From a bacterium (GTDB lineage: Bacteria; Patescibacteriota; Dojkabacteria; SC72; WJKH01): a DNA stretch of 64,000 bases. Shown here in pieces: positions 7,711 through 64,000 of this stretch. The notes beneath the pieces are model-generated. The model made no database searches. It saw only the letters and a list, made by a program, of their open reading frames with translations, and had not been told where the DNA came from. How positions within the stretch are numbered: position 1 is the stretch's first letter; each line of letters opens with the position of its first letter. The stretch spans positions 4,065 through 68,064 of the forward strand of contig JAKPPS010000032.1 in the NCBI GenBank assembly GCA_029547225.1. Reading direction: 5' to 3'. Position numbers and translations under genes: made by a program.

Positions 7711-8451
7711 ATGTCGGTATTACCTCAATCCGTACAGAAGGTTATTGAACATTTTGAGAAATTGCCTGGTGTCGGTCCAAAATCTGCATCTCGTATGGTG
7801 TACTATTTTTTGCGCAATCCGCACAAAGAAGCGACTTCACTGGCTGATTCCTTAACTGAAATGGATCAGAAGGTTAAGCAGTGTCAACATTGTTATAACA
7901 TTGCGGAATCAGAAATCTGCAACATATGTAACAGTCCACTTCGTGATAAAAAGAAGCTTTGTATTGTCGAGGAGCCACTAGATGTTGTTGCTTTTGAAAA
8001 TTCAGCTGTATACGATGGGGTCTATTTTGTACTAGGTGGAGTTATTTCTCCAGCAGATGGCATCGGAGCTGACGATCTAAGGTTTGATCAGTTAAAAGTG
8101 AGAGTTCGTAACCTGCTAAAGGAGATTGCTGAAAAGAATAGTAAGGATTTACAATCGAAAAGTGAGGACAGCACTGTTGTAAATGTGTTAGAAGATGGGG
8201 ATATAGCAAAGGAAAACAATAGCGGAAAGACTATAGGTGTAGATAAAATAGGGGCTCTAGAAATAATTATTGCAACTAATCCTAGTCTAGAGGGTGAGGC
8301 GACTGCTTCATATATTAAGGAAATTTTTTCCGAAGAGGTCAACGGTGGACTTATACGAATCTCTCAGTTGGCGATGGGTTTGCCGACTGGTGCAGATCTG
8401 GAGTATGCGGACAGACTTACGCTAAAACGTGCTTTAGATGGCCGAAACTAG
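7711..8451 (+). CDS. recR: Recombination protein RecR (with an insertion in the Toprim region)
   Basis: It has the HhH motif 'LPGVGPKSASRM', a C4 zinc finger 'CQHCYNIAESEICNICN' and the Toprim motif 'LCIVEEPLDV'. Confidence 0.9.
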   Translation: MSVLPQSVQKVIEHFEKLPGVGPKSASRMVYYFLRNPHKEATSLADSLTEMDQKVKQCQHCYNIAESEICNICNSPLRDKKKLCIVEEPLDVVAFENSAVYDGVYFVLGGVISPADGIGADDLRFDQLKVRVRNLLKEIAEKNSKDLQSKSEDSTVVNVLEDGDIAKENNSGKTIGVDKIGALEIIIATNPSLEGEATASYIKEIFSEEVNGGLIRISQLAMGLPTGADLEYADRLTLKRALDGRN

Positions 8452-8491: not shown

Positions 8492-10234
8492 TTATTTTTC
8501 TTTTAGTAGTTTCTTTGCTTCATCTATATCGTTCCATGGGTATTCGGTGTTGCCAAAGCAGAGGCTTTGTTCATGAGCCTTGCCACATATGATTACGATA
8601 TCTCCATTGTTAGCGATGTCGAAAGCTTTGATGAGAGCATCTCGTCTTATTTTTACATTTTGCGTGTCATCGTCAAAGCGAATTAATTGGTGTGGGCGAC
8701 TTGCATCATTTGAATTGGATGAATTAATGTTTTTTTGTGATTTAGTAAATCCTTCTTCTATCTCATCGTTGATTGCTTTAAGTGATTCACTCCGTGGGTC
8801 TTCTGCAGTCAATATTGTTACATCGGCTATCGTTCCGGAAATTTCTCCCATGGGGCCTCGTTTACTCGTATCTCTTTTACCAGCACATCCAAATACTGAG
8901 ATCAATTTGTTATTATCTTTCAGTAATGCTTTCGCCGATTTTAAGGCATTTTCGAGCGCATTTGGAGTGTGTGCGAAATCTACTATCACCATAAAAGGAG
9001 CTTTTTGGACTACTTCCATGCGTCCCTTTATTGTTTCAAAAAACGAAAGGGCCTGTATAATTTCTGCTATTGTATTACCTGCTATTTGTTGTATTGTCGC
9101 TATTGCTGCTAGCGAGTTAGAGATATTATATTCTCCTAAAATTTGCATTTCTACTGGAATCAGGTTGATCAGGCTATTTACAAGGTCTGTCTTGAAATCG
9201 AGACTTTTTACGGAATCATTTTTCGTAACTAGGGTGAAAGAAATATTACCATCCTCGGATTTTTTCTCAGTATTGTTTAAGGCGATATAATCGATTTTAT
9301 CAATGTTGTTGCTTTCTGATAGTCTTGAATATGATAGTTTTACAATATCCTTTCGACCAGTATGATTAATAATGTTAGTAAGAAAGTCGTATGATTTTTT
9401 ATCGTCGTAATTTAATATTACTTTGCCACCGTTTTTTAGGTGCTCTGTAATAAGTCGAGATTTTGCGAGAGCATAGTTTTCCCATGTCTTATGATAATCA
9501 AGATGTTCGTTTGTGATATTTGTATACGCGACGGTATCAAATTTAATACCTGCTAGACGTCCCATCGCCAATCCGTGAGAAGTTGATTCGATGATGGCAT
9601 GAGAGCAGCCTTCTTGCTCCATTGTTTTTATTAGTTTGAATAATTCTTGTGAAGATGGGGTAGTGGTGTGGAAACCTGTGTCTATTTCTTTATCACCAAT
9701 TTTTGCAGATACTGTAGAAATAAGGCCCGGTTTGTAACCTAATTTTAACAATGTGTGATAGATCATTGTGCTGGTTGTAGTTTTACCATCAGTGCCAGTT
9801 ACACCAATATACTTCATCTTTTCAAAATCGATCTTAAATAGCGGCGCAATGTCTGAATCTTCAAATGCCTTTATTTCTTTATCTGAAAGGTTTTTCCCTT
9901 CGTAATCTTTGATCAATTGATCGTAAAGTTCTCCAACTTCCATTGCTTTTATGTCAGGATTATCTATATGCAACTTTTGAATAATATCGTTGGGAAGAGC
10001 AGCAGAGTAGATATATGCGTCAGTATTTTTATCAAATGGCTTGTCCGGATTAGCAAATGTTATTTTTGCACCCATTTTTATTAGTTCGTCGGTGCGAGGA
10101 TTAGGTGATATATCGTGCCCATACACTTTCGTACCGCAAAGCAATAAAAACTTCGCGATATAGAATAATCCAGCACCTCCTATACCAAGACACCTTACTT
10201 CTTTTAATTTCTCATAATTACCAATTTTATTCAT
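8492..10234 (-). CDS. murE: Mur ligase, MurE-like body with a MurC-like N-terminal Rossmann segment
   Basis: MurE-like motifs are 'IGVTGTDGKTTT', 'NEHLDYHKTWENYALAKSRL', 'DFAHTPNALENAL', 'GCAGKRDTSKRGPMG' and 'TAEDPRSE'. The N-terminus 'LGIGGAGLFYIAKFLLLCGTKVYGHD' looks like MurC or Mpl. Confidence 0.65.
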   Translation of the reverse strand: MNKIGNYEKLKEVRCLGIGGAGLFYIAKFLLLCGTKVYGHDISPNPRTDELIKMGAKITFANPDKPFDKNTDAYIYSAALPNDIIQKLHIDNPDIKAMEVGELYDQLIKDYEGKNLSDKEIKAFEDSDIAPLFKIDFEKMKYIGVTGTDGKTTTSTMIYHTLLKLGYKPGLISTVSAKIGDKEIDTGFHTTTPSSQELFKLIKTMEQEGCSHAIIESTSHGLAMGRLAGIKFDTVAYTNITNEHLDYHKTWENYALAKSRLITEHLKNGGKVILNYDDKKSYDFLTNIINHTGRKDIVKLSYSRLSESNNIDKIDYIALNNTEKKSEDGNISFTLVTKNDSVKSLDFKTDLVNSLINLIPVEMQILGEYNISNSLAAIATIQQIAGNTIAEIIQALSFFETIKGRMEVVQKAPFMVIVDFAHTPNALENALKSAKALLKDNNKLISVFGCAGKRDTSKRGPMGEISGTIADVTILTAEDPRSESLKAINDEIEEGFTKSQKNINSSNSNDASRPHQLIRFDDDTQNVKIRRDALIKAFDIANNGDIVIICGKAHEQSLCFGNTEYPWNDIDEAKKLLKEK

Positions 10235-17894: not shown

Positions 17895-18995
17895 ATGGAA
17901 GTAAAAACAATTAAAGTCGATAATTTAGAATTATTAAAGGACAAAATTGCACAAGAACTTGTACAACAACCTGTCACCGACAAATATATGTGTTGGCGGT
18001 ATAAGAATTCACAGATAAGTGTAGTAGCTTATACTTCAGGCAAAGTTGTATTTAGCGGAAATGGTGATATTAATAAATATTTATTACATTGGGGTGTACT
18101 AAACTCCTCTGACATTGAAGATGTACGAACCGAGGACAGTGAAAAGAATTTGCACAGTAATTCTAAAAGTGCCGACGGTTTAAAAATAACTGACAACAAG
18201 GGAAAATTCGATAACACTATCTCGTATAGGGATGGGGCTTTTGTCGATATTGGTTCAGATGAGGCGGGTAAGGGAGAGTACTGGGGGCCTTTATGTGTCA
18301 GCGCAGTATATCTTGAAAATGGGAATATCGCTCAGATAAATAAACTAAAAGAATTGGGCGTAAAGGATTCAAAAAAACTTAGTGATATACAGGTAATCAA
18401 GTTAGCAAGCCAGATAAAGAAAGTGGTTAAGTATGAACTGATAGTTTTGGCATTAAGAGATTTCAATAAAGAGATGGAACTTAAGAAAAATATATCGATA
18501 ATAATGGGGGATTTACATGCTAAAGCGATAAATAACATCATAGCCGAATTAAATGAAGCTAGTGTACAGAAATCTAAAAGCAAGTCTTGTAAATATGAAG
18601 AATTAGACATTGTTGTAGATAAATTCTCTTCGGTATCAAATAGGATTGACGGGAAGCTGATTCCATATACCCCCGGGGGTATATCCAGCACCAAAGTAAA
18701 AGGTGATGCTTCTCATAGTAAAGTGAATCTTCATCAGATAGAGAAGGGGGAACAGTATTTGGCTGTCGCTTGTGCATCAATTATTGCACGACAGGCATAT
18801 CTTGAAAATATCGAAAAGCTTTCAAAGAAATACGATTTTATCTTCCCAAAAGGGTACACGAACATCGAGAAAACTATCATCGATTTTGTAGAATTACATG
18901 GAGAAGATGCTTTATATGATGTTGCTAAGGTCTCCTTTAAGACTACAAAAAGGGCTTTACCAAACTTTCGATACAATATGATAGAACAGAAATAG
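17895..18995 (+). CDS. rnhC: Ribonuclease HIII
   Basis: It has the N-terminal RNase HIII-specific domain ('YTSGKVVFSGNG'), the catalytic motif 'GSDEAGKGEYWGPLCVSAV' and 'VACASIIAR'. Confidence 0.8.
   Translation: MEVKTIKVDNLELLKDKIAQELVQQPVTDKYMCWRYKNSQISVVAYTSGKVVFSGNGDINKYLLHWGVLNSSDIEDVRTEDSEKNLHSNSKSADGLKITDNKGKFDNTISYRDGAFVDIGSDEAGKGEYWGPLCVSAVYLENGNIAQINKLKELGVKDSKKLSDIQVIKLASQIKKVVKYELIVLALRDFNKEMELKKNISIIMGDLHAKAINNIIAELNEASVQKSKSKSCKYEELDIVVDKFSSVSNRIDGKLIPYTPGGISSTKVKGDASHSKVNLHQIEKGEQYLAVACASIIARQAYLENIEKLSKKYDFIFPKGYTNIEKTIIDFVELHGEDALYDVAKVSFKTTKRALPNFRYNMIEQK
18665..18684. repeat. 20-bp palindrome ATATACCCCCGGGGGTATAT (site 1, inside rnhC)
   Basis: It is a perfect 20-nt palindrome in the ATATAC-N8-GTATAT format. 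It is read in frame as Y-T-P-G-G-I-S. Confidence 0.9.
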
Positions 18996-20060: not shown

Positions 20061-21407
20061 TTATCTTATAGGATCAGAAGACGGAGCTCCTGAATTAATT
20101 ATTCCAGAAGCTTTTGTAGTCATGACAAAATATACTTCTTCAGTAAAAACACCTGCAGGATTAGCTGATCTTACCTTGCCTTTAACTTTCAAAGCACACT
20201 TACCTGTATAAATTGGACCTTCCGAATAATAAGTGTTCGTCGTTGTCGGATCTTTGCTTATTATCCCAACGTTATCTGTACCACCAAGATATGTACTTGT
20301 ATAGTTTGCAACTGGAGATATTGTTGATAGTTCACCACCATTACCAGTATCGTACTGCTGTGATGAAGTATAGTGCTGTAGCCCAAATCCATCTGTAGAG
20401 GTTGCAAGATCTGCTGTTTTTGATTCAACTGATAAGGTTGTTCCGTCACTTAATCCACCATATTTCCCGAAGTTGCTGATTCTAAAACCAGTTTGGTAAT
20501 TTGTTCCGACATTAAGCCAGATAAGATTATTTGCCTCTTGAATAAAATCTGGAGGTAACACAATGGAAAGATTATGCGGAGGATTGGAGCTTGGTGCTCC
20601 TGAAGTATCTGCAATGTCAATATTCATTTCGAGATAAGGATTTGTTGTTGCTACAGAAGCGTAAGGACCAGGTTCCGATTCAGTAAGGTTACCATGCAAT
20701 GCAGTAGCTCTAATGTAATAAGTTGTACTAGGTGAAATACCTCTTATATTTAAAGTTGTAGCCTCCCATGTTGCTTCTGTTTGATAATCTGCAATTGATT
20801 TTGTACTACTTGCTTTTGGTGCAAATGTAGTACCATCGATAATGCGATATGTCGCGAAAGAGCTATCTGTACTTATCTGTATCGAGTATAGTGTATCGCT
20901 TGGGTTTCCCTGTGGGTCAATTTCAAATCTTGCTCTGTTGTAACATCCGTGAGGTCCACAAACTGTTATCATCCCATCTGATGCTACATATGTAGGTGCA
21001 GTACAACTTGATGAACCAACAGTATCTGTTTCAAAACAGGCAATTTTAGGGACATTGGCGATAAATGCAGGGATTGTTCCATCTTGAGCTTTGTAACTTG
21101 CAGATGTTAGTAGGGTTTCAGCAATCATATCATCGATATTACTTGTTGAAATAAAATTTGATGTAGCAGATGTAGCTTCATCTACCGAACCATAATTTTG
21201 TTTGATTGTCATTTGAAAATTCGGAGAAACTAGTTCTTCGGCATTTACAGGTTTGCTTATAAGGGAGTTATATACCCCAGTGGGTATATCTTGACCTTTA
21301 CTAAAAGAAAATAACTGAGTAACCAACAGATATGTTGATAAGGTGAATAATAGTGATAACAATAATAATTTGAATACCTCAGAATTCATAACCTGTATCT
21401 TTTGCAT
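20061..21407 (-). CDS. Secreted protein with a fibronectin type III-like domain
   Basis: Signal-like N-terminus 'FKLLLLSLLFTLSTYLLV'. The segment 'YSIQISTDSSFATYRIIDGT...STTYYIRATALHGNLTESEPGP' reads like an FN3 domain. The C-terminal strand 'PAGVFTEEVYFVMT' resembles pilin or WxL-type terminal strands. Confidence 0.55.
   Translation of the reverse strand: MQKIQVMNSEVFKLLLLSLLFTLSTYLLVTQLFSFSKGQDIPTGVYNSLISKPVNAEELVSPNFQMTIKQNYGSVDEATSATSNFISTSNIDDMIAETLLTSASYKAQDGTIPAFIANVPKIACFETDTVGSSSCTAPTYVASDGMITVCGPHGCYNRARFEIDPQGNPSDTLYSIQISTDSSFATYRIIDGTTFAPKASSTKSIADYQTEATWEATTLNIRGISPSTTYYIRATALHGNLTESEPGPYASVATTNPYLEMNIDIADTSGAPSSNPPHNLSIVLPPDFIQEANNLIWLNVGTNYQTGFRISNFGKYGGLSDGTTLSVESKTADLATSTDGFGLQHYTSSQQYDTGNGGELSTISPVANYTSTYLGGTDNVGIISKDPTTTNTYYSEGPIYTGKCALKVKGKVRSANPAGVFTEEVYFVMTTKASGIINSGAPSSDPIR
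21270..21289. repeat. 20-bp palindrome ATATACCCCAGTGGGTATAT (site 2, inside the 448-aa surface protein gene)
   Basis: It has the ATATAC-N8-GTATAT format with 8-bp perfect arms ATATACCC/GGGTATAT. It encodes D-I-P-T-G-V-Y on the minus strand. Confidence 0.85.
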
Positions 21408-21684: not shown

Positions 21685-21773
21685 GGAGAGGTGTCAGAGT
21701 GGTCGAATGAGACGGTCTTGAAAACCGTTAAGGGGGGCAACCTCCTTCGCAGGTTCAAATCCTGTCCTCTCCG
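21685..21773 (+). tRNA. tRNA-Ser (anticodon UGA)
   Basis: Acceptor GGAGAGG/CCTCTCC, anticodon arm ACGGT-CTTGAAA-ACCGT (anticodon TGA), a long variable arm and T-arm GCAGGTTCAAATCCTGT. CCA is not encoded. Confidence 0.9.
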
Positions 21774-25127: not shown

Positions 25128-27536
25128 ATGCAAAACAGTTATTCAAATAATCAGATGGTAGGTGGGTCAATAGCTCCTACTACAAATGGAAATAGTTTTG
25201 ATGGTCATGATAATACACAAAAGTTTAAGACAGGTTTATGGCAGGAGGATATCGATGTCCGTGATTTTATACAAAAAAATTATACTCCATATGAAGGCGA
25301 TGAAACTTTTCTAGCTCCAGCAACGGATCGTACTAAGAAATTGTGGGAAAAGGTGTCAGGTTTAATCAAGGAAGAATTAGAAAAGGGAATACTTGATCTT
25401 GATGTTAATACGCCTTCAAGCATAACAAGTCATGCTCCTGGTTATATAGATAGAGAGAATGAAATAATTGTGGGTTTGCAAACAGATGCACCACTTAAGA
25501 GGTCGATAAAGCCGAATGGGGGTATTAGATTAGTCGAGAAAGCAGCCGAAAGTTATGGTTATACGATTCCTCAGGAAGTCATCGATATCTTTACGAAACA
25601 TCGTAAAACTCATAATGATGGCGTTTTCAGTGCTTATACAGATGAAATCAAACTTCTAAGATCTCATCATGTAATCACTGGCCTTCCGGACAATTATGGA
25701 CGAGGTAGGATAATTGGAGATTATCGTCGATTAGCGTTATATGGTACTTCACGTCTGATAGAACAAAGAAAAAATTATCTTTCTCAAATGAGCAATACTC
25801 AATCAGAAGAGAATATCCGTGCAAGGGAAGAGATTTTCGAACAAATAGAAGCGTTACAAGACATAGAAAAGATGGCAAAAGAGTATGGTTATGATGTATC
25901 GAGGCCAGCAACAAACAGTAAAGAGGCGTTGCAATGGATCTACTTTGCATATTTGTCAGCTAACAAACAACAAGATGGCGCAGCAATGTCACTTGGCCGT
26001 ATCGACGCATTTTTAGACATCTATTTCAATCAAGATCTTGAAAACGGTCTTTTTGATGAAGCTCAAATCCAGGAGATGATAGATGATTTTGTAATAAAAC
26101 TCAGAATAATCCGACATTTACGCCCACCTGAATATAATGAACTATTTGCTGGGGATCCAATATGGGTTACCATGGTTTTTGGTGGTATCGGTATCGATGG
26201 AAGGAATATGGTTACTAAAACAGCATATAGATTTCTACATACGCTGAGCAATTTGGGTCCTGCTCCCGAACCCAATCTAACGGTATTGTGGGCAGATCTT
26301 TTGCCTGCTAACTGGAAGAAGTATTGTGCAAAACAATCAATCAGATTCAGCTCGATCCAATATGAGAATGATGACATCATGAAGGAGTACTATGGAGACG
26401 ACTATGGAATCGCGTGTTGTGTTTCTGGCATGAAATTAGGTAAGGAGATGCAATTCTTTGGAGCCAGAGCTAATCTCGCTAAGACTTTACTTTTGGCAAT
26501 TAATGGAGGTAAAACAGAGCCGATGTTGAAATCTAATGCGCTATCTGGTGTGAGTTATTCCGGAAGTATAATCAATGGCCAACAAGGAGATAACAAAGCT
26601 TCTGAAGAAGAAGAAAAGGCTAGGGGTGGTATAACGATTTTTGAAGGTCTAAAGCCATTAAATCAGAGCGAATATTTACAATATGACCAGGTTTGGGATC
26701 AGTTTTTGTTAGTTCTGGATAAAGTAGCAAAGGTTTATGTTGATGCTTTAAATACAATCCATTACATGCATGACAAATACCATTACGAAAGTGCCGAGAT
26801 GGCTTTTCATGATGTAGATGTCAAAAGGTGGCTAGCTTGTGGTATCGCTGGATTATCAATAGTCGCCGACTCACTGAGTGCAATAAAGTATGCGAAAGTT
26901 AAACCAGTATGGAATGAGTTTGGAGTTGCTGAAGATTACATCATCGAAGGAGATTACCCTAAATATGGTAATGACGATGATCGAGTTGATGAAATAGCTG
27001 TTGAGATATGTAAGGAAGTTATAACTGCATTGAGAAGATATGAAGCATATAGAGATTCTATACATACATTGTCAGTGCTTACAATCACTTCAAATGTTGT
27101 GTATGGTAAGGCTACGGGTGCAACTCCAGATGGTCGAGACGCTGGAGTACCATTTGCTCCAGGTGCTAATCCTATGCATGGTCGAGATGCTAATGGTGCG
27201 GTCGCATCACTAAATTCGGTCGCTAAAATCCCTTATAAATACTGTCAAGATGGTATTTCAAACACATTTTCGGTTGTACCTACCACATTGGGGGCTGATA
27301 TAGAAACGCAGAGTCAAAACCTAGTTGCGTTGATGGATGGATATTTTGTAGCTCATGGAGCCCATCATCTTAATGTAAATGTACTTACAAGAGAGCTATT
27401 GCTAGATGCACAGCAAAGTCCTGAAAAATATCCGCAATTAACAATCAGAGTAAGTGGTTACGCGGTATTATTTAATAGACTTAGTAAAATACAACAAGAT
27501 GAAGTAATTGCTCGTACATTTCATACAAGATTGTAA
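25128..27536 (+). CDS. pflB: Formate C-acetyltransferase (pyruvate formate-lyase)
   Basis: It has the catalytic Cys-Cys 'GIACCVSG' and the glycyl-radical motif '[12 protein letters not shown]'. The length (802 aa) fits. Confidence 0.93.
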
Positions 27537-27607
27537 TTGTACCAATAAGCTAATTGAAACATTGGGATTATTCTACAAATAATTTATATGTTAGTATTCT
27601 GAGCGAG

Positions 27608-28468
27608 ATGGATAATAAGTCGATAAAAGGGAAGATACATTCGATTGAATCTTTTTCTACAATAGATGGCCCTGGTATTAGGTCGGTACTTTTTATGTCT
27701 GGCTGTTTTTTGAAATGTCCATTTTGTCACAATATTGATGTTGTACTTAATCCGGCTAATCAAGTAAGCGAGCCTGCAGAAATATTGCAGTATCTTAAAA
27801 AGTTTTCAGATTATTGGGGTGATGATGGAGGTATCACCTTAAGTGGGGGAGATCCTTTAGTTCAGATTGAGTTTACGCAGGAGATTACAAAGTTAGCTAT
27901 AGGTGAGGGGATTAATGTCACTATCGATACGGCTTTGATAAGTGATGAGTCTAGCTTCCGATATCTAATGGATGCTTTATATACCCCTGGGGGTATATCG
28001 GACAGTACATTACGGGGGTTAGAATCTGATATTCCTGCCAATCGTGGAAAAATATTTTGGATGTCTTCTTTTAAACCACATATCTTTGCAAAAGACACTC
28101 CAGGTTATAATTTAGATAATTTTCTTGCTAATCTAAGGGCGCTTATTGATCGAATAAGGTTATCAGAGAGGGTAAGTTTGAGGATAAGGTATGTTGTTAT
28201 AAAGGGTTTTACAGATAATCTTGAGGCATGTAATGAATTGGTTGAACTTCTTTCTCAAATCGATGTGCCGTTTGAATTAGAACTTCTGCCGTATGTTAGT
28301 TGGGGTGAGAAAAAATGGGCCGATCAGGGTTTGGAGTATTTGCTTAAGGGTTTAAGTAGTACAAACCATGAGGAATTAATGCAATTTCGTAATATGGTGG
28401 AGCAACAGGTGAAAGATAGAAACCTATCAAATGTTACTAAGATAATGCCACTAATACAGAATAAATAG
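27608..28468 (+). CDS. pflA: Pyruvate formate-lyase activating enzyme (radical SAM)
   Basis: It has 'IESFSTIDGPGIRSVLFMSGCFLKCPFCHN' (CX3CX2C). I prefer the ATG at 27608 over the tracked TTG at 27554. It carries an insertion of about 20 to 40 aa relative to my memory of E. coli PflA. Confidence 0.88.
   Translation: MDNKSIKGKIHSIESFSTIDGPGIRSVLFMSGCFLKCPFCHNIDVVLNPANQVSEPAEILQYLKKFSDYWGDDGGITLSGGDPLVQIEFTQEITKLAIGEGINVTIDTALISDESSFRYLMDALYTPGGISDSTLRGLESDIPANRGKIFWMSSFKPHIFAKDTPGYNLDNFLANLRALIDRIRLSERVSLRIRYVVIKGFTDNLEACNELVELLSQIDVPFELELLPYVSWGEKKWADQGLEYLLKGLSSTNHEELMQFRNMVEQQVKDRNLSNVTKIMPLIQNK
27979..27998. repeat. 20-bp palindrome ATATACCCCTGGGGGTATAT (site 3, inside pflA)
   Basis: It has the ATATAC-N8-GTATAT format with one central mismatch. 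It is read in frame as Y-T-P-G-G-I-S, the same heptapeptide as site 1. Confidence 0.9.
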
Positions 28469-28857: not shown

Positions 28858-31266
28858 ATGAACAAGATCCATTTGATTAAAATGAAAATGCCTTACCATA
28901 CAAGTGAGGGAGAAGCAGATACAACTTATAAAAACAGATATTTTGTTATTGGAAAGTGCCTTAATTGTAATAGAAATCTTGGTAGGAGTGTTTTTATTGG
29001 TGAACCTATCAAAAAAAGAAATTGGTTAGTATCAAAATACCTTTCTGTAATATTAGTAAGTTTTATCTTTGCTTGTGTAATCTCTTTGACTCCAAAAACT
29101 GTAAAGGCGGATTATTTTTATCCTTCAGGCGATACTGTTAATTGCAATATTGCTCAGTCAACATCGATTACTGTAAATCGTCTTCCAGAAAACACAGATA
29201 AAGACGACTCAATTAGTTATGACTCACACCTAGTTGTTGGACAATATGTGGATTTCCCACAGAACCATACAATTACGGATATCGCGGACATTACTTATCC
29301 AGATGCCAGAAGGTATCTCGGTGTTGCAGATCGAGTTTCTGCCCCACCTGATGCTGTTTTGGATGTTGGGTACTTTGTATTCAATTATTCTGGGCACCAA
29401 GTTGATGTTGTCAATGGTTACTTTTTCTTCTCCAAAACAGATCAGTTGGGGGACTGGGGTCGTTTCGGGATAAATGGGCCAACGAGAAGCGTTTCGTATT
29501 TGATTAATGGAACCTGGGTGAATAAAGTTGGGAAGACAATTTATAAGGAAAACTGGGGAAGTTGGCCTGTAAGTAGTTTTTCTGCACCACCGAGAGGTAC
29601 ACTGATAGGACAAATTACTCTTGGAGAACAAATCCAGTACGATACAACGGGTGTGAGTTACGAAATTAATGAATCGTCAGAAATTGTTGCGAATATAACT
29701 GTAATTGTAAAAAACATAGCAGGATATGATTTAACCGATCTTGAATATCGTCACGGAACCTTTTCAGAACAATTTGCATTGTCAAAAAATGGAGAAGCAG
29801 GCGATACAAAGGAAATTAATTATTCTCTTAATCTGGGGCGGAATTATGGAAGACAAATAGATATTGGACGCCCGGCAATCATTAATAATACTTCACATAC
29901 AGAGTGTTTACTTGAAGCAGGACAAAACTGGAATTCCACTGATCCAGATACAAGAAGTATAGTGACTTTTCGAAGTGATCAAAATGCGGGTTCGTGGCTT
30001 GGCTCGCAAATAGATTTAAATACTGAGCCAAGTGGAGATAGTATGTGTATCACAATGATACCATATACGAAGCATTTGAAATCTTTGTATATCGATGTTT
30101 TGCCCCAATTGAGTTCAGAAATTACTCTATCAGATAATGATGAAATATCTACAAAATCGTTGAGCACTTTTGTTGCTCAAACCTCGGTTGTGAATATTAC
30201 AGTTGCGGATACAATCATTGATGGTAAGGAAATAAAAATAGCTCTTGATTTTAAAAAAGAAAATATCCGATTTCTAGATACATGTGGTGGGCGGATATAC
30301 GGCGATTCAGTGATTTGGGATGAGGTTAGTATTGCAAATAATGCAGTATGGTCTTGCAATTTGACTTTTGTTTCAGAAAATGTGGCTGAGGATGTTAATT
30401 TTAATGTGTTTGCAAGGATAGATGAATTAGATGTTGAAAGTAATCATGATAATGCAATTGTTGATATTGGAGAATTGCCTAAAGTTAATGTAGAAAAATC
30501 GATGCAGTACGATGTAGAGAGTAAGAAAATAATTGCAACAGTATCATTTGAGGTAGATGCATTAGGTGATGGACGTTCAATTATCCTAAGTGATGTGTGT
30601 GATAACTGTCCTGAGAATTATGAATATCTTGGTAATGTACCATTGAACGAAGTGTATTATCCAACCAATGAAAATTATTTACTCAAATTCGAGTATTTAC
30701 TTGATGCGCAAGATTTATCTGAGCTGCCAAAAATAGTTAACAACTGTTTTTTTGTACATGCGTCAGATTTTGATGATTCTGAAGGATCAAGCGAGGCTGG
30801 TAGACACAATATAGAAATAGCAAAATCGTGTATTAGTCTCGCTCTTACAATTGATGGAGGCGAGATTATTCCTGATTGGGAAACATTACCTCAGAATATC
30901 TCTGAAGATGTTCTTCCAGATCAATTACTTGTTCCAGAAACTAACGAGGGTATTCTAAGTTTTTTCTCTAACCTTGAAGACGCGATAAGTAATGGTGGAA
31001 ATTGGGGAAATGATGGTGGCTCGAATAGTCAAACTTTTTCAGGTTTTGTTGATAATATCGCAGATCTGCCTTATTTGCTTTTTGAAAATACTCTTGCTAA
31101 TTCTGGTTTCGCATTTTCAGAAAATATCAAAATTGCTTTATTTTCAGCGTTGATCTTAATTGTTGCTTGTGTAACCGGAGTAATTCTATGGGCAAGCAGG
31201 CGGAAAGAGAAAAAAATATTCCGTGATCAAATACATTCAAAAGGGCATAATGGAAATCATAGGTAG
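28858..31266 (+). CDS. Large envelope protein with an N-terminal TM and a C-terminal TM plus basic tail
   Basis: N-terminal 'CLNCNRNLG' then TM 'LSVILVSFIFACVISL'. An ectodomain of about 690 aa follows. The C-terminus is 'TLANSGFAFSENIKIALFSALILIVACVTGVILWASRRKEKK'. Confidence 0.6.
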   Translation: MNKIHLIKMKMPYHTSEGEADTTYKNRYFVIGKCLNCNRNLGRSVFIGEPIKKRNWLVSKYLSVILVSFIFACVISLTPKTVKADYFYPSGDTVNCNIAQSTSITVNRLPENTDKDDSISYDSHLVVGQYVDFPQNHTITDIADITYPDARRYLGVADRVSAPPDAVLDVGYFVFNYSGHQVDVVNGYFFFSKTDQLGDWGRFGINGPTRSVSYLINGTWVNKVGKTIYKENWGSWPVSSFSAPPRGTLIGQITLGEQIQYDTTGVSYEINESSEIVANITVIVKNIAGYDLTDLEYRHGTFSEQFALSKNGEAGDTKEINYSLNLGRNYGRQIDIGRPAIINNTSHTECLLEAGQNWNSTDPDTRSIVTFRSDQNAGSWLGSQIDLNTEPSGDSMCITMIPYTKHLKSLYIDVLPQLSSEITLSDNDEISTKSLSTFVAQTSVVNITVADTIIDGKEIKIALDFKKENIRFLDTCGGRIYGDSVIWDEVSIANNAVWSCNLTFVSENVAEDVNFNVFARIDELDVESNHDNAIVDIGELPKVNVEKSMQYDVESKKIIATVSFEVDALGDGRSIILSDVCDNCPENYEYLGNVPLNEVYYPTNENYLLKFEYLLDAQDLSELPKIVNNCFFVHASDFDDSEGSSEAGRHNIEIAKSCISLALTIDGGEIIPDWETLPQNISEDVLPDQLLVPETNEGILSFFSNLEDAISNGGNWGNDGGSNSQTFSGFVDNIADLPYLLFENTLANSGFAFSENIKIALFSALILIVACVTGVILWASRRKEKKIFRDQIHSKGHNGNHR

Positions 31267-51279: not shown

Positions 51280-52397
51280 TGCTCCATGCAATAATCTTCG
51301 AAATATATGCCTTTAATGTTGAATTGCCTCTCTTTTGATAATCCCATTATTGCAGATAAGAGATTGTCTGAATTTCCTACCAAAGCTAATTTGGGCTCAT
51401 GATCTTTTACACTAGGGTCTAGTTTTAAATATACCTCAGGGGGTATATATGGCGGATTTGATATTATAAACACACTACTTTTATCAAATACGCTCTGGGG
51501 TATATTTTTGAGCCAATTACTATTTATAAATTGAACATCTTTACTATTTAGAATCGCTTTTTTGTCGTCCAATATAGGATTCTTTTTTATTGTTTGATAG
51601 TTGTTAGTAGCAATAGATAAAGCTTCTTGAGAAATATCCGTTCCTATAAAGTCAAATAACGCAAACCATTTACTTACTAAATTACGCTTACGGAGATCAT
51701 TGATGAAACCATCTATTTTATTTCTGTTTTTCTTAAAGTATTCATGCAATTCGAAAATATCTCTTTCAGTGATAAGCCTAGTGTTTGTTTTAAAACATAT
51801 ATGTGGTATTTCAAGCTGTTCCGTATATATTCGATCAGAAATATTCTTGATGTTTATTGAACCAGAAATAATACCACTTAAAATCATGTAAACCGAAGTG
51901 ATTATACAACCTGAACCAGTACCGATATCTATTATTGTAATTGTATTAATTGATGATTTATCGGAATCAAGTTTATCTAACAGGTCATTATTATTAAAAA
52001 CATATTCTGAAAAGAAATATTGTAATATCGATAGGGTAGAGTAGTACACTAAGAATTCCGTATCGGTCCTTGGTATAAGAACATTTTTATCAACCTGAAA
52101 AATATACCCACAAAATTCTGCCGAACCTTTGAAATATTCCCAAGGCATATTGTTCTTGAGCTTCTCAATTATCACATCTATCTGAGAAGAAATAAGTGAT
52201 TTAAGGTTTTCGATACTTTTCTTTGCAGGCTTCTTTTTGTTTGGATTAATAAAATTCTCATTACAGGGATTAGCGGAGATTTCGTTAATTACATATTGCA
52301 GTATCTCGTTTGAAATGCGTAAACTATCAGGGTGATTGATATTCTGGAGTTTTCTTTGCAATTGGGGTAGCAAATCGATAAATTCGCTTGGTATCAT
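51276..52397 (-). CDS. prmC: Release-factor glutamine N5-methyltransferase (with a large internal insertion)
   Basis: It has the SAM motif 'IIDIGTGSGCI' and the catalytic motif 'IISNPPYIP'. It lies immediately downstream of prfA on the same strand. Confidence 0.8.
   Translation of the reverse strand: MIPSEFIDLLPQLQRKLQNINHPDSLRISNEILQYVINEISANPCNENFINPNKKKPAKKSIENLKSLISSQIDVIIEKLKNNMPWEYFKGSAEFCGYIFQVDKNVLIPRTDTEFLVYYSTLSILQYFFSEYVFNNNDLLDKLDSDKSSINTITIIDIGTGSGCIITSVYMILSGIISGSINIKNISDRIYTEQLEIPHICFKTNTRLITERDIFELHEYFKKNRNKIDGFINDLRKRNLVSKWFALFDFIGTDISQEALSIATNNYQTIKKNPILDDKKAILNSKDVQFINSNWLKNIPQSVFDKSSVFIISNPPYIPPEVYLKLDPSVKDHEPKLALVGNSDNLLSAIMGLSKERQFNIKGIYFEDYCMEH
51429..51448. repeat. 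20-bp palindrome ATATACCTCAGGGGGTATAT (site 6, inside prmC)
   Basis: It has the ATATAC-N8-GTATAT format and overlaps the codons for P-Y-I-P-P-E-V-Y, directly at the NPPY motif. Confidence 0.8.
51486..51505. repeat. Near-consensus site AAATACGCTCTGGGGTATAT (site 7, inside prmC)
   Basis: It has the frame AAATAC-N8-GTATAT, centred 57 bp from site 6. It encodes N-I-P-Q-S-V-F on the minus strand. Confidence 0.5.
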
Positions 52398-54308: not shown

Positions 54309-54338
54309 TTGACATATACCCCTAGGGGTATATATAAT
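54309..54338 (+). promoter_or_regulatory. Promoter with an embedded perfect 20-bp palindromic operator
   Basis: TTGACA (54309..54314), then ATATACCCCTAGGGGTATAT (54314..54333, a perfect palindrome), then TATAAT (54333..54338), giving an 18-nt spacer. It lies 32 nt upstream of the CsoR-like ATG. Confidence 0.7.
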
Positions 54339-54369: not shown

Positions 54370-54597
54370 ATGGCGAAAAAAGGACCTGCTTCAATATCAG
54401 ATCGATTAAATAGAGTAGAGGGACAGATTAGGGGTATTGAAAAATTAATTGCAGAAGGTGAATCTACAGAAAAAATATTACCTCAGTTACAAGCGATTAT
54501 TTCTGGTATAGAAAATGTTAAGCTCGAAATGATTAAAGAACAAATGAAAAAACAGCTTCTATCTGAATTAGATAAAGTTGTTGATCTATTAAAGTAG
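54370..54597 (+). CDS. CsoR/RcnR/FrmR-family (DUF156) DNA-binding protein lacking all Cys and His
   Basis: 'SDRLNRVEGQIRGIEKLIAEGESTEKILPQLQAIISGIENVKLEMI' aligns by eye to the family core 'RL.RIEGQ.RGI...C.DIL.Q..A...A...V.L.LL..H...C'. The 75-aa sequence contains no C or H. Confidence 0.75.
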   Translation: MAKKGPASISDRLNRVEGQIRGIEKLIAEGESTEKILPQLQAIISGIENVKLEMIKEQMKKQLLSELDKVVDLLK

Positions 54598-54693: not shown

Positions 54694-55818
54694 TTGAATC
54701 GTAACGATAAATCAATTTCCAATGATATCGAATCTACAATTTCTTCTTTATTTATGGGGATTTTCCGAGGTAGTCGAATTGTATTTAATCGCTCTGTTTG
54801 GTTGAATCGCCATAGAGGGAGTTTAGTAATTCCTTCTATTTTATTCATTGCTATTTTTATTGCTATTGTAATATTTGTATTTCAACTATCCTGTATTTTT
54901 TCTTCGGGTTATTGTCAAAATTTATATCATGCTATTTATGATTTAAATAACGATGTCGATGGAAAAACTATCGCGGATGATGTCTTTAATCAAAATACAG
55001 CTAATCTTCAGATCGAGGATTCTGATGAAGTTGATAAAGGTACTGAAAAACGAAGTGGTATTAATAAGGTTAGTGAAGTAGTCGAAAACTGCGGTTTAAA
55101 CATTAGTAATAATGAATCTAAACAGATAGTGGAATGCTTCAATAATTACTTTAACTCAAATATGTATTCAGATGCTTTTTTGTGTATAGAAAGCGCAAAT
55201 ATATATGCAGACATTAATTACGGAGATGAATTTGATATCGATAAGGGCATGGTAATTAGACAGAATGGTGCTAATTGGGATGATGAAAATAATATTGTTA
55301 TTACGGGTCATAGGATTAATTTATCTCAACCAAATCATAAAACTCTACTTAATTTGGATGATGTTGAATCTGGAGATAAGATTCTTGTTTTACGTACACT
55401 TCCAAAGGAAAAGCTGGAAGAAACTGCCTTTGAAAACCAAAAAGTCACTGAAAAAAAATCTGCTAATGAATCTTATGATAATATCCACAATGACGAGGTC
55501 CTAAACATTAACAATACAATAGTTTGTAATGCTGAAGATTTTATTTCACATAGAAATATTAATAATAACGATGACTTAAGTAGCGATGGTAAACAAGCAT
55601 TTATCATTTATGAGTACAGTGTAAATATTATAGATGAGGTACTTCCTCAGGAAGTTCAGATAGAAAGTATAATCAGTCCATATTTATATACTAGTGGGGG
55701 TATATATAATGAAAGAAAGTCTACAATTACAATTTATACTTGTACACCCTTGTGGGTATTTAATCGAAGACTGGTTGTATTTGGTATCTTAGAGAATAAA
55801 TATCATTTGTTGCTCTGA
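54694..55818 (+). CDS. Sortase-family transpeptidase-like protein with an N-terminal TM and a large insertion
   Basis: It has a TM 'LVIPSILFIAIFIAIVIFVF', 'NIVITGHRIN...LLNLDDVESGDKILV', the catalytic Cys context 'ITIYTCTP' and Arg 'NRRLVVFG'. TTG start. Confidence 0.65.
   Translation: MNRNDKSISNDIESTISSLFMGIFRGSRIVFNRSVWLNRHRGSLVIPSILFIAIFIAIVIFVFQLSCIFSSGYCQNLYHAIYDLNNDVDGKTIADDVFNQNTANLQIEDSDEVDKGTEKRSGINKVSEVVENCGLNISNNESKQIVECFNNYFNSNMYSDAFLCIESANIYADINYGDEFDIDKGMVIRQNGANWDDENNIVITGHRINLSQPNHKTLLNLDDVESGDKILVLRTLPKEKLEETAFENQKVTEKKSANESYDNIHNDEVLNINNTIVCNAEDFISHRNINNNDDLSSDGKQAFIIYEYSVNIIDEVLPQEVQIESIISPYLYTSGGIYNERKSTITIYTCTPLWVFNRRLVVFGILENKYHLLL
55686..55705. repeat. 20-bp site ATATACTAGTGGGGGTATAT (site 9, inside the sortase-like gene)
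   Basis: It has the ATATAC-N8-GTATAT format, with the left C-tract replaced. The right side GGGGTATATATAATG is a 15-nt identity with the promoter copy at 54325..54339. Confidence 0.75.
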
Positions 55819-58482: not shown

Positions 58483-58566
58483 GCAGAAGTGGTGGAATTG
58501 GCATACACGCGGGACTCAAAATCCCGTCCTCGCAAGAGGATGAGGGTTCAACTCCCTCCTTCTGCA
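58483..58566 (+). tRNA. tRNA-Leu (anticodon CAA)
   Basis: Acceptor GCAGAAG/CTTCTGC, anticodon loop CTCAAAA (anticodon CAA), a long variable arm and T-arm GAGGGTTCAACTCCCTC. Confidence 0.88.
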
Positions 58567-60764: not shown

Positions 60765-62081
60765 ATGAAAAGCATCGAAGAAAGTAATAAAAATCTTGAA
60801 TCTGAAAATAATGATACTGCTGTAGAAAGTCCAAATGTAGTGGTTGGAAAACGATTAGATTTAACGGTATTTGAATATATACAGAATCTTGGGCATCAAA
60901 TGCGGTCTAAAAGTGATGATGAAATATACTTGAGCAAAGATCCAAATATCACAATTAATGTAATTAATACTGGGGTAGATATACAATTAGATAACTTAGA
61001 AAAAGTTAGCCGAAGTCTGATTTCAAATAACATTAACAGTATCGTACTGGTCAATAATCTTAAAGAAAAACGAGGTTATAAATTAAGGAAAAATGATGTA
61101 GTAACAATTGATCTGTCGGGTCTTAACAAAATACTGGATCAATCAATAAAAAATAAAAATCTAAATAGTGGGATATTTACAGTTGTCTCAAGAAAAGGTG
61201 ATCTTGATATAGTCTTTGAAGACAAGAACCTACTTGTAATCAACAAAAAAGCTGGTGTGTCGGTACATCCTGGAATCTCAAATCTCGATAATACTTTAGC
61301 CAATTATGTCCGATATTATCTTGAGGATAAATCAGAATTTGATAATCAGGTTGTAAATGGAGGTATCGTCCATCGACTAGATAAATGTACGAGTGGCTTA
61401 ATAATTTATGCAAAAAATCATGAAACACAGATCGCATTGAAACAAATGTTTAAGAGAAGAAAAATAGTAAAGGGGTATATTGCACAAATAGAAGAAAACA
61501 TCTTGAATATAGGCCCCATATACCTAGGGGGGTATATAAAACGTGATAAGGTTGACCGTAGAAGGATGAAGTATTTCCCTTTGACAATTCAGAATCTTGA
61601 AACAGAAAGCAAAGTAGATATATTGAGAGATATTGAATATGTTCCCGTTAATCAGGCGTTTATTAACTCACAATCTGCAGAAATACTTCCTTTATCTGAG
61701 GACAAATCTAATACACGAATGACTCAATATGGCAATGTGAGTATAGATGGGCCAGATGTTCAACAAGTTAACAAGAATGATTTTAAGAGTACCTACAGCC
61801 CTCGAGATATAAAAGATATTGGTAATACATTAAAACTTTGCGAAACACTTATTGAACCAATATCAGGAAATAGATTGTTGGTCTATCCAATTACTGGCAG
61901 AAACCATCAAATAAGGGCTGTCTTACGCGAAATTGGCTATTATATTTTCGGAGACACATTGTATAAGTCCAAAAGGGAAGGGGATATACCAGAAGAAATT
62001 GGTCTGAAGTGTGTCTATCTTCGAGTTGAAGAATATGGTGATGGTTTGGAGATTTCCCTGCCAGACTATAAGACACTCTGA
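60765..62081 (+). CDS. rluD: RluA/RluD-family pseudouridine synthase (with insertions)
   Basis: It has 'LLVINKKAGVSVHPG' and the catalytic motif 'HRLDKCTSGLIIYAKN', with 'RNHQIRAVL' near the C-terminus. Confidence 0.8.
   Translation: MKSIEESNKNLESENNDTAVESPNVVVGKRLDLTVFEYIQNLGHQMRSKSDDEIYLSKDPNITINVINTGVDIQLDNLEKVSRSLISNNINSIVLVNNLKEKRGYKLRKNDVVTIDLSGLNKILDQSIKNKNLNSGIFTVVSRKGDLDIVFEDKNLLVINKKAGVSVHPGISNLDNTLANYVRYYLEDKSEFDNQVVNGGIVHRLDKCTSGLIIYAKNHETQIALKQMFKRRKIVKGYIAQIEENILNIGPIYLGGYIKRDKVDRRRMKYFPLTIQNLETESKVDILRDIEYVPVNQAFINSQSAEILPLSEDKSNTRMTQYGNVSIDGPDVQQVNKNDFKSTYSPRDIKDIGNTLKLCETLIEPISGNRLLVYPITGRNHQIRAVLREIGYYIFGDTLYKSKREGDIPEEIGLKCVYLRVEEYGDGLEISLPDYKTL
61518..61537. repeat. 20-bp site ATATACCTAGGGGGGTATAT (site 11, inside rluD)
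   Basis: It has the ATATAC-N8-GTATAT format and encodes P-I-Y-L-G-G-Y-I-K. Confidence 0.8.
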
Positions 62082-62636: not shown

Positions 62637-64000
62637 ATGCAGCAAATCGAGCTATTAAATCAAAACAGAAAGAGTATGTTAAGTGAGCCAAAGTATAATA
62701 TTCTTTCGTTGTTTAAATCAAATGAAAAGGATAGGACTCGTTCGACTGAAATACGTCATGATAAGTATTCGTCACATGTATTAGATATTAAGAGAGATAT
62801 TATTAATTCAAATACAAGTGAAGCGAAGAGAAATTTTAAGAATAAAAATTTCCGTCGGCATGGTTTGGCAGAGGACAGTATTAAGTATAAGAATGAAAAA
62901 TACTCTTCTTCTCGGTCAAGAGCTTCTGTTGGCTCTTGTAATGCAGAAAGTAAAAAAGATCGTGGAGGAAATAGTGTACTTGGAAAATTGTTTACTGTTC
63001 TTACAAAGATAGTAATTGCTCTGATTGTACTTGCTATCCCAGCATATTATATTTATGTTGGATTTACTCTTTCGGTGATAAATATCGAGGATCCTTTATC
63101 GAATACAGGGACTCTAGTTGCGAGAGATGATGATTTATTTAGGCAAATAATAATAATGACTGATGAAGAAGATACTGAGGTCGTGGGTGTGTATATCTTC
63201 ATTTCAAATCAAGTCTCGGGTGATTCGCTAGTATATTATATACCCCCGTGGGTATATAGTGATGACTACAGTAACACTTTTGAGCAACCTGTTTCTGTGG
63301 GGAACTTGCTTTATATGGCTTCAACGGTTGATCCGGAAAAGAAATATCAATTTGTGATAAATCAAATATCAAGTGTAGTGGGTATGATCTTTGACTCATA
63401 TATATATCTACCAACCGATAAAGCTTCTGAAATCTCTGATCAATGTAAATATGATAGTAGTAAGGGTGCGGAGTATATCGATAAATGTATATCCGGTCTT
63501 ACAAATCCTTTTAATGTACTTGAGAGTCATAAGTTGGACGAACTAATACGATCTCTTCGCTCAAATCTTACTTATAAGCAGATTATGCAGTTAAGAAACC
63601 GTATTGGTGCGATTGATTTTGGAACTGATGGTAATGGTATTATTTCTAATTACAACGGAAATATTATTGATCTTTCAAGTAATAATTATGTAATAGAGAA
63701 TACTGCTCCTGGTGATCAAAACATTATAGTGAGTAAACTTGTAGTTGAATCTATAGACAGTATTATCTCTGAAAACATTGATATTGTACGCTCCAAAAAT
63801 ATCCAAAAAGAGCTTGTTAAAGTAGAAGTTTACAATGGTAGTGGTATACCTAAGTATGCAAGTAAATATTCGAGATATATTAGTAATATGGGGTGTACTG
63901 TAGTGCGTTTTGGCAATGCAGATAAAGAATATGAGCAGACTACAATATATGTTGTTGATCCCGAAAGATTTCAGTATTCCTTGAGTGTGGTTAAAGCTAT
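62637..64000 (+). CDS. Membrane protein with a LytR_C-type C-terminal domain (LCP-like; 3' end outside window)
   Basis: This ORF is not in the supplied track because it runs off the window. ATG at 62637, TM 'LFTVLTKIVIALIVLAIPAYYIYVGF', and 'VKVEVYNGSGIPKYASKYSRYISNMGCTVVRFGNADKEYEQTTIYV' resembles the LytR C-terminal domain. Confidence 0.6.
   Translation, partial: MQQIELLNQNRKSMLSEPKYNILSLFKSNEKDRTRSTEIRHDKYSSHVLDIKRDIINSNTSEAKRNFKNKNFRRHGLAEDSIKYKNEKYSSSRSRASVGSCNAESKKDRGGNSVLGKLFTVLTKIVIALIVLAIPAYYIYVGFTLSVINIEDPLSNTGTLVARDDDLFRQIIIMTDEEDTEVVGVYIFISNQVSGDSLVYYIPPWVYSDDYSNTFEQPVSVGNLLYMASTVDPEKKYQFVINQISSVVGMIFDSYIYLPTDKASEISDQCKYDSSKGAEYIDKCISGLTNPFNVLESHKLDELIRSLRSNLTYKQIMQLRNRIGAIDFGTDGNGIISNYNGNIIDLSSNNYVIENTAPGDQNIIVSKLVVESIDSIISENIDIVRSKNIQKELVKVEVYNGSGIPKYASKYSRYISNMGCTVVRFGNADKEYEQTTIYVVDPERFQYSLSVVKA
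63238..63257. repeat. 20-bp palindrome ATATACCCCCGTGGGTATAT (site 12, inside the LCP-like gene)
   Basis: It has the ATATAC-N8-GTATAT format with 8-bp arms ATATACCC/GGGTATAT. It encodes Y-I-P-P-W-V-Y. Confidence 0.85.

Follow-up and report, generated by a model that had tools for sequence, protein, structure and literature searches.

The locus described here raises the question of why two unrelated enzymes contain the same heptapeptide, YTPGGIS, encoded by nearly the same palindromic DNA. The first-pass annotation, in which this was noticed, suggested either that a short palindromic cassette had been acquired in frame or that the local sequence had been converted toward the motif. Here, both sites were re-read, and the palindrome was followed through the window, that is, the whole stretch of 64,000 nucleotides that was analyzed, and through related genomes. 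The answer reached is that the peptide is probably a by-product of a DNA element resembling the operators of CsoR-family repressors. The source organism is Candidatus Dojkabacteria, a CPR lineage. Identical contigs were recovered in a number of JGI and ENA metagenome assemblies that are independent of one another, so that the locus is not an assembly artefact.

The Shared Heptapeptide and Its Host Genes

In the window DNA, the two focal palindromes are each followed by C and share the pattern ATATACCCC-NN-GGGGTATAT. As had been claimed, 20 of 21 nucleotides are identical, the sole difference being located at the central position. The same frame, TAT ACC CCN GGG GGT ATA TCN, is used at both sites, confirming that the same seven residues are encoded. 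The likeness ends at the edges of the palindrome, also in agreement with the earlier description, and the DNA around the 27979 copy is unrelated to that around the 18665 copy. The observation of two sites was therefore real but incomplete, the family comprising at least eight copies, which are listed in Table 1 together with the genes concerned.

Table 1. Positions of the palindrome copies, host genes, and regulatory features in the window.
Feature	Position	Strand	Remark
Second focal palindrome ATATACCCCCGGGGGTATAT	18665..18684		within RNase HIII-like gene; encodes (P)YTPGGI(S)
RNase HIII-like gene	17895..18995	+	hosts 18665 copy
Copy ATATACCCCAGTGGGTATAT	21270..21289		in 448-aa secreted-protein ORF (minus strand); DIPTGVY directly past signal peptide
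Glycyl-radical-enzyme activase gene, PFL-AE-like radical SAM	27554..28468	+	hosts 27979 copy
Focal palindrome ATATACCCCTGGGGGTATAT	27979..27998		within PFL-activase-like gene; encodes (L)YTPGGI(S)
Two weak relatives TTATACCCTGTGGGGTATTC, ATATACCCAGCAGGGTATAA	42688..42856		in transglutaminase-like gene; family membership doubtful
Copy ATATACCTCAGGGGGTATAT	51429..51448		in prmC (minus strand); over catalytic NPPYIPPEVY motif
Sigma-70-type promoter TTGACA-18-TATAAT	54309..54338	+	12/12 consensus positions
Palindrome ATATACCCCTAGGGGTATAT, presumed operator	54314..54333		intergenic; spacer of csoR-like promoter
75-aa CsoR/RcnR-family protein, presumed palindrome binder	54370..54597	+	PF02583
Copy ATATACTAGTGGGGGTATAT	55686..55705		3' part of sortase gene; LYTSGGIY in 13-aa lineage-specific insertion
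Copy ATATACCTAGGGGGGTATAT	61518..61537		in RluD-like pseudouridine synthase gene; encodes IYLGGYI
Copy ATATACCCCCGTGGGTATAT	63238..63257		in LytR_C-domain gene; YIPPWVY over invariant YIPxW motif

The names pflA and rnhC given to the two host genes are approximate. Both agree with the top NCBIfam match, but both matches lie under their curated cut-offs: the activase matches PFLA (TIGR02493) in two pieces and scores 150 bits where 231.75 are required, and the RNase HIII-like protein reaches 138.9 of the 161.2 bits required for rnhC (TIGR00716). A PFL-like gene at 25128-27536 is located directly 5' of the activase gene, and the RNase HIII-like protein contains an RNase_HII domain together with a weak DUF3378 N-domain.

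Both sites had been described as lying in segments that look inserted or variable relative to homologues, and the alignments bear this out. The activase contains approximately 20-37 extra residues compared with distant homologues, in the stretch that joins a helix to the following strand, and the RNase HIII-like protein contains an insertion of approximately 15 aa without counterpart in distant homologues; the palindrome is at the start of the insertion in each case. Structure prediction, proposed earlier as a check on the encoded loops, places both peptides in low-confidence coil. In the AlphaFold model of the activase (286-aa form), YTPGGIS corresponds to residues 125-131, with pLDDT < 50 at 131-143, while in that of the RNase HIII-like protein it corresponds to residues 258-264, with pLDDT < 50 at 262-274. 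The annotation had also named YTPGGIS in homologues that lack the DNA motif as the observation that would speak against its reading; each homologue with YTPGGIS was found to have the DNA palindrome as well.

Distribution of the Palindrome in the Window

A mismatch-tolerant search of the window, with up to three mismatches allowed, returned eight matches, compared with 0.00 expected from 100 dinucleotide-preserving shuffles. The family of copies is far in excess of chance. The element is a 20-bp palindrome, ATATAC-CCC-NN-GGG-GTATAT, and the interiors of all eight copies are C/G-rich. The spacing of its arms is fixed: ATATAC-Nx-GTATAT occurs eight times in the window at x = 8 and not once at each other x from 4 to 12. 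Weaker look-alikes are located at 42688, 42837, and 51486. Further copies were sought in the 9.5 kb of the contig extension before the window and the 8 kb after it, and none was found there. Approximately 82 kb of this genome examined thus hold eight copies, all inside 45 kb, and the density is about 1 per 8-10 kb. The clustering near the csoR-like gene is marginal, with five of the eight copies at most approximately 9 kb from it (rough post-hoc p = 0.05). GC skew places the window within one replichore.

Seven of the eight copies are intragenic, the 54314 copy being the sole intergenic one. Approximately 85% of the window is coding, and placement that ignores gene boundaries gives such a share, which is unlike that of a classical regulon. 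No common functional theme is apparent among the host genes, and copies are read in each of the three frames and on either strand.

The copies can be observed to occupy protein segments that accept them or sites whose codons were already suited to the palindrome. The rnhC, activase, and sortase copies are associated with insertions relative to homologues, of 13 to about 37 aa, with the palindrome at or near one edge. The PrmC, RluD, and LytR_C copies involve no insertion; they lie over conserved motifs and display point changes in comparison with relatives. At the motif equivalent to 51429, relatives of PrmC read NLPYIPSEVC or NLPYIPTGQY, which indicates that the site shifted toward the palindrome via point changes. 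The right arm of the 61518 copy lies over a GYI(G/K)R motif common to both relatives compared, and the one arm mismatch of the 63238 copy is located in an invariant Trp codon. The idea of local conversion toward the motif is accordingly borne out in part, in that it fits these three copies on pre-existing conserved peptide motifs.

Conservation of the Palindrome at the DNA Level

The two focal sites were compared with those of a second species, from sample ERR14964769, at the loci of the activase (L124) and the RNase HIII-like gene (L125). The activase and RNase HIII-like proteins of this species are 61-65% identical to those of the window, the activase orthologue being 63% identical. Both focal palindromes are present at orthologous positions with 18 of 18 arm bases the same, while the flanks have diverged. 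In the activase copy the centre alone differs, and in the rnhC copy there is no change. Elsewhere in the focal genes, the codon is kept at only approximately 50% of the conserved residues. Over the approximately 15 kb that were compared with this species, no palindrome was gained or lost. Closer relatives display the same behavior. In two strains that are approximately 97% identical (L211 and L212), the rnhC copy is retained with changes at the central NN only, and the 17 nt directly 3' of it carry 8-9 substitutions. In L211, the copy in the 448-aa gene is likewise retained with changes at the centre only.

The codons chosen are also restricted. Given the peptide YTPGGI and the codon usage of the window, the probability of TAT ACC CCN GGG GGT ATA is 0.0013 per occurrence, and the rare codons ACC (9.6%) and GGG (11%) are used in all four YTPGGIS occurrences. 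The expected count of YTPGGI in the window proteins is 0.00045. Since arm bases and rare codons have been kept next to flanks that changed, it is the DNA that is selected: the intragenic copies compared are under purifying selection at the DNA level. Furthermore, departures from symmetry among the eight copies are all one-sided and none is compensatory, with ATATAC and GTATAT invariant, and sequence-specific protein recognition is therefore favored over pairing.

A CsoR-Like Gene Behind the Intergenic Copy

The intergenic copy and the promoter that surrounds it form a unit 36 nt upstream of a gene for a 75-aa protein of family PF02583 (Trns_repr_metal; E = 2.8e-14, 53.7 bits, cut-off 22.8), with PDB matches to CsoR, InrS, and FrmR. 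The protein retains the RLxR motif in helix 1 (RLNRVEGQ) and the Gln of helix 2 (QLQA), and R12, R15, G18, Q19, Q39, and A42 are invariant across its 75-aa clade. It contains zero Cys and zero His, and the copper-ligand Cys at the X position of Geobacillus CsoR (4m1p) aligns with Thr. In the clade of roughly 75-aa relatives, the sensing residues have likewise been lost, and RLxR and the helix-2 Gln retained. None of the W-X-Y-Z ligand sets used for sensing, such as x-C-H-C (copper) or x-C-x-C (persulfide), is present in the protein. Judged from its residues, it is a putative CsoR-family DNA binder that lacks the sensing site of every characterized subgroup.

Detoxification genes (copZ/copA, cst, rcnA, and frmA) were sought near the csoR-like gene and were absent there; its neighbors are rpmE, prfA, prmC, a sortase gene, an MBL-fold gene, and dnaB. 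The position of the palindrome as the spacer of the gene's own promoter implies autorepression. The same arrangement, TTGAC plus the palindrome, also precedes the csoR-like gene in three other Dojkabacteria loci (L038, L206, and L210), and in L060 it stands before a probable csoR-like gene that is cut off at the end of the locus. The match to CsoR-family operators and the overlap with a csoR-family promoter in the same window were absent from the first-pass annotation.

Resemblance to CsoR-Family Operators

For streptomycete CsoR, the type-2 consensus is ATATACCCCTNAGGGGTATAT, in which the TAC/GTA dyad and the G-tracts are essential; two tetramers bind such a site, and the part played by the RLxR and Gln residues in DNA binding has been described (PMC3902906). 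The operator of CstR in S. mitis is ATATACCCTTATGGGGTATAT (PMC8643695). At the level of sequence, the window palindrome matches the CsoR/CstR type-2 operator class. It is almost identical to the operators of Streptomyces lividans CsoR and S. mitis CstR, in which the arms are likewise ATATAC and the C/G tracts and TAC/GTA dyad are likewise present. In these systems the site also lies over the regulator's own promoter, as at 54314, and the regulator is likewise a PF02583 protein with RLxR and the conserved Gln. Several differences should be noted. The spacing from TAC to GTA is N8 here and N9 in the published Streptomyces consensus. In the CsoR/CstR systems, sensing residues are present and copZ/copA or cst lies nearby, whereas neither holds here. 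Moreover, seven of the eight sites in the window are inside ORFs, where both focal ones are conserved.

The N8 form is also common beside csoR genes in other phyla, as displayed by an exact-motif scan over 185,579 species genomes, the figures of which refer to the matches listed. Among these, many loci from Actinobacteria, Firmicutes, and other groups contain one to three copies of the motif. A CsoR-family ORF was detected with an iterated HMM in 50 loci, and in 29 of these 50 the exact motif is at most 300 nt away from it. In unrelated metagenomic csoR-family loci, TACCY-N-RGGTA is located at most 250 nt upstream of the gene in 37 of 80, again among the matches listed, and these 37 gene-upstream palindromes account for most of the 56 TACCY-N-RGGTA palindromes in the 557 kb of the same loci. 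A literature search on Dojkabacteria palindromes or intragenic CsoR sites returned nothing relevant.

Occurrence in Other Dojkabacteria

Syntenic loci from other Dojkabacteria, in which RF1 is 64-70% identical, were compared for the presence of regulator, operator, and intragenic copies. In two of them (L207 and L208), the CsoR-like protein is 73 aa long and belongs to a different subclade, and its gene is not preceded by the palindrome; in L209, a csoR-like gene was sought and none was found. Over the 55 kb of these three loci taken together, there is 1 relaxed match. L206 and L210 encode the 75-aa CsoR-like subclade with the operator, and their intragenic matches are weak only. The window together with L206 and L210, in all of which the palindrome lies in the csoR-like promoter, contains 17 relaxed matches in 94 kb. 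With the window left out of the count, as well as the operators in promoters and the orthologous sites that are shared, the co-occurrence has a p of roughly 0.02, and the co-occurrence of operator lineage and copies gives weak support to a link between protein and sites.

The presence of regulator and operator with weak intragenic matches in L206 and L210 indicates that the expansion is narrower than the distribution of the regulator. Strong intragenic copies seem to represent an expansion limited to the window lineage and the relative from ERR14964769. Perfect intragenic copies do occur, among the matches listed, in other Dojkabacteria MAGs and in one Peregrinibacteria MAG. Examples are a SufB-like protein with YIPPGVY (L010), DIPPGVY (L074), and EYTPGGI (L050), which are subject to ascertainment bias because they were found via a motif search.

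Proposed Function of the Palindrome

On the basis of the operator match and the residues of the 75-aa protein, it is proposed with a probability of roughly 0.6 that the palindromes are dispersed putative binding sites of a sensor-less CsoR-like protein and that YTPGGIS is a by-product of the DNA element. The mostly intragenic placement, the lack of a theme among the host genes and of copper or sulfide genes in the neighborhood, the N8 spacing, and the narrow spread of the expansion speak against this proposal. The 75-aa CsoR-family protein, its sensing residues lost, would bind the palindrome ATATACCCCNNGGGGTATAT and would repress its own gene via the copy in the promoter spacer. The seven further copies would persist in surface-loop insertions, in a linker following a signal peptide, or in motifs with codons that resemble one arm. 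Purifying selection would hold both arms and leave the central NN free, so that unrelated proteins would share YTPGGI, IPxGVY, or IYxGYI according to the reading frame. We infer that the 75-aa protein binds the intragenic copies and that this binding is the selected trait.

The effect of such binding may take several forms. Repression of internal or downstream promoters is a candidate, because the 55686 copy is the spacer of a promoter-like TTTATA-16-TATAAT, approximately 300 nt upstream of the next gene. Transcription roadblocking, bridging or looping among clustered sites, and nucleoid organization may also be considered. A more far-reaching version, drawn by analogy with Noc/NBS, SlmA/SBS, MatP/matS, or ParB/parS, is that the CsoR-family protein has been repurposed and is not a metal or sulfide switch but a site-specific chromosome binder, with high-affinity palindromes kept in genes. 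Upkeep of the sites would then create or fix loop insertions and force rare codons on the host proteins. This version is speculative and rather unlikely to hold.

Alternative Explanations

Another source of selection on the DNA could be a DNA-level drive or some other binding protein, such as an uptake-signal-like system, restriction-modification, or a recombination site, with the csoR operator match coincidental or secondary. The placement of copies in low-constraint segments and pre-adapted motifs, with gene boundaries ignored, would be expected from this, and the placement of USS/DUS and HIP1 in coding DNA is similar. It is an unlikely explanation, however, in view of the full match between the motif and a well-characterized operator class, and of its presence in the promoter spacer of a gene of the same family in at least four Dojkabacteria lineages, probably a fifth. 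In addition, known uptake sequences, at about 1 per kb, are roughly ten times denser than the palindrome, which occurs about once per 8-10 kb, and the relatives without the operator (L207-L209) are nearly without copies. The short palindromic cassette suggested earlier, which would be a mobile, in-frame, miniature analogue of the Rickettsia palindromic elements (RPEs) with the heptapeptide marking independent insertions, is also unlikely. The lineage-specific insertions at the edges of which the rnhC, activase, and sortase copies lie are in its favor, but the PrmC, RluD, and LytR_C copies are over conserved motifs and not in insertions. The likeness between copies ends exactly at 20-21 nt, with neither common flanks nor terminal structures, and the focal copies are stable between species at approximately 63% protein identity over the approximately 15 kb compared. 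No transposase or RAYT-like gene is present among the proteins checked. Finally, 2.9 million viral contigs yielded 17 matches, all single-copy, which indicates that the palindrome is no phage or mobile repeat.

If pairing alone mattered, the palindrome could act as a hairpin, either as an mRNA stability or processing signal or as a DNA cruciform. The perfect copies can indeed fold into a stem of 8 bp, at -9 to -14 kcal/mol, but the z-scores against shuffles are modest, from -0.3 to -2.9. In the degenerate copies, one-sided changes break two or three pairs of the stem without compensation, and ATATAC and GTATAT are always kept. One copy, moreover, forms the spacer of a promoter and so precedes any probable start of transcription. 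An Rfam search of the window returned two tRNAs only, with no match to the palindrome. An RNA hairpin was rejected because of its modest energies and the lack of covariation, and the pairing explanation as a whole is very unlikely. The remaining reading, that selection in both enzymes is on YTPGGIS as a functional peptide and that the palindrome is incidental to it, has next to no probability. The peptide is indeed conserved in Dojkabacteria orthologues of both enzymes. Against this, all four occurrences are written with the same rare codons, at 0.0013 each, other copies are in other frames, on the opposite strand, or untranslated, and the loops, modeled with low confidence, are missing from distant homologues. 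Codon usage and the diversity of frames effectively refute a protein motif.

Comparison With Known Systems

The proposed dispersed binding sites of the CsoR-like protein resemble several known classes of repeated DNA. RPEs are likewise repeated palindromic DNA in unrelated ORFs, in frame, in surface segments missing from orthologues. They are mobile insertions of 100-150 bp and are similar across their whole length, whereas here only 20 nt are common and some copies are on conserved motifs without insertion; an RPE-type consensus extending beyond the core is lacking, the flanks of all eight copies being unrelated. The sites of chromosome-organizing proteins (parS/ParB, NBS/Noc, SBS/SlmA, and matS/MatP) are palindromes of 13-20 bp; a chromosome carries tens of them, most lie within genes, and they are retained from one species to another. 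The likeness to them concerns the features of the sites alone, the 75-aa protein belonging to a different family from the parS, NBS, SBS, and matS binders. In the case of Haemophilus USS, Neisseria DUS, and cyanobacterial HIP1, the motif is, as here, located in poorly constrained segments or where the codons fit, and gives rise to recurrent peptides. Unlike these, the palindrome in the window is much sparser and is a recognizable repressor operator, with a gene of the cognate family adjoining.

Conclusion

CsoR operators, as well as intragenic sites of transcription factors or organizers, are already known. What is unusual here is a regulator without a sensor, an operator multiplied within the ORFs of a tiny CPR genome, and sites whose conservation is so strong that unrelated enzymes are made to use rare codons and to contain the same loop peptides. 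For annotation, it should be noted that short peptides common to unrelated proteins can be footprints of a DNA motif and not protein motifs. Should the intragenic copies truly be bound, they would represent a clear case of dual-use coding DNA in bacteria: rare codons, and the loop peptides that recur in unrelated enzymes, would be set by a repressor operator conserved within the ORFs. A sensor-less clade of the CsoR family in CPR bacteria, whose regulators are very few, would also gain a role.

Sequence around the palindromes in rnhC and the sortase gene

Directly 3' of the palindrome (ATATAC-N8-GTATAT) in the RNase HIII-like gene rnhC, window positions 18685-18701 were compared with 8388-8404 of locus L211, from a strain that is ~97% identical elsewhere. 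Within these 17 nt, 8-9 substitutions can be observed, and the protein reads SSTKV in the window versus SDADI in L211. The tract is locally hypervariable and borders an invariant palindrome. Within the 3'-terminal part of the sortase coding sequence, another copy forms the spacer of a promoter-like sequence, with an MBL-fold gene (56015) located ~300 nt downstream. This element is a candidate internal, repressible promoter that could have arisen through the sortase's 13-aa insertion.

Features of the window with their positions
Feature	Position	Remarks
tRNA genes (n=2)	21685-21773 and 58483-58566	Rfam
802-aa ORF	28858-31266	just 3' of the activase gene
PrmC	51276-52397	373 aa vs 268-291 in related Dojkabacteria orthologues
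Sortase	54694-55818	374 aa vs 181-219 in related Dojkabacteria orthologues
Promoter-like TTTATA-16-TATAAT	55683-55710	10/12 matches; spacer is palindrome copy 55686
RluD-like	60765-62081	438 aa vs 309-323 in related Dojkabacteria orthologues
LytR_C protein	gene start near 62637	487 aa vs 400-402 in related Dojkabacteria orthologues

Other features of the window

Proteins of the window's lineage systematically exceed their related Dojkabacteria orthologues in length, via multiple insertions. Rfam gave no match in the window besides the two tRNA genes. The 802-aa ORF had no match in Pfam or NCBIfam; it equals the PFL-like protein (25128-27536) in length, and BLASTP found no similarity between the two (E = 3).

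Inverted repeats and palindrome-like sites in related loci

The intergenic region shared by a csoR-like gene without the palindrome and a divergent hsp20 gene carries, in both L207 (about 8974-9085) and L208 (about 7828-7943), a TTAGCA...GAGTGCTAA inverted repeat, which we take to resemble the CIRCE/HrcA operator. In the RNase HIII locus of a related species (L125, 7513-7532), a palindrome near-copy, ATATTCCCGAAGGGGTATAT, lies over the conserved FPKG motif; the peptide constraint probably accounts for this similarity, which would then be coincidental. Weaker palindrome-like sites occupy orthologous positions in an ABC ATPase gene and prmC of two other operator-bearing Dojkabacteria lineages (L206 1741/L210 1588 and L206 11769/L210 11853), suggesting that some intragenic sites may have originated before the window's lineage.
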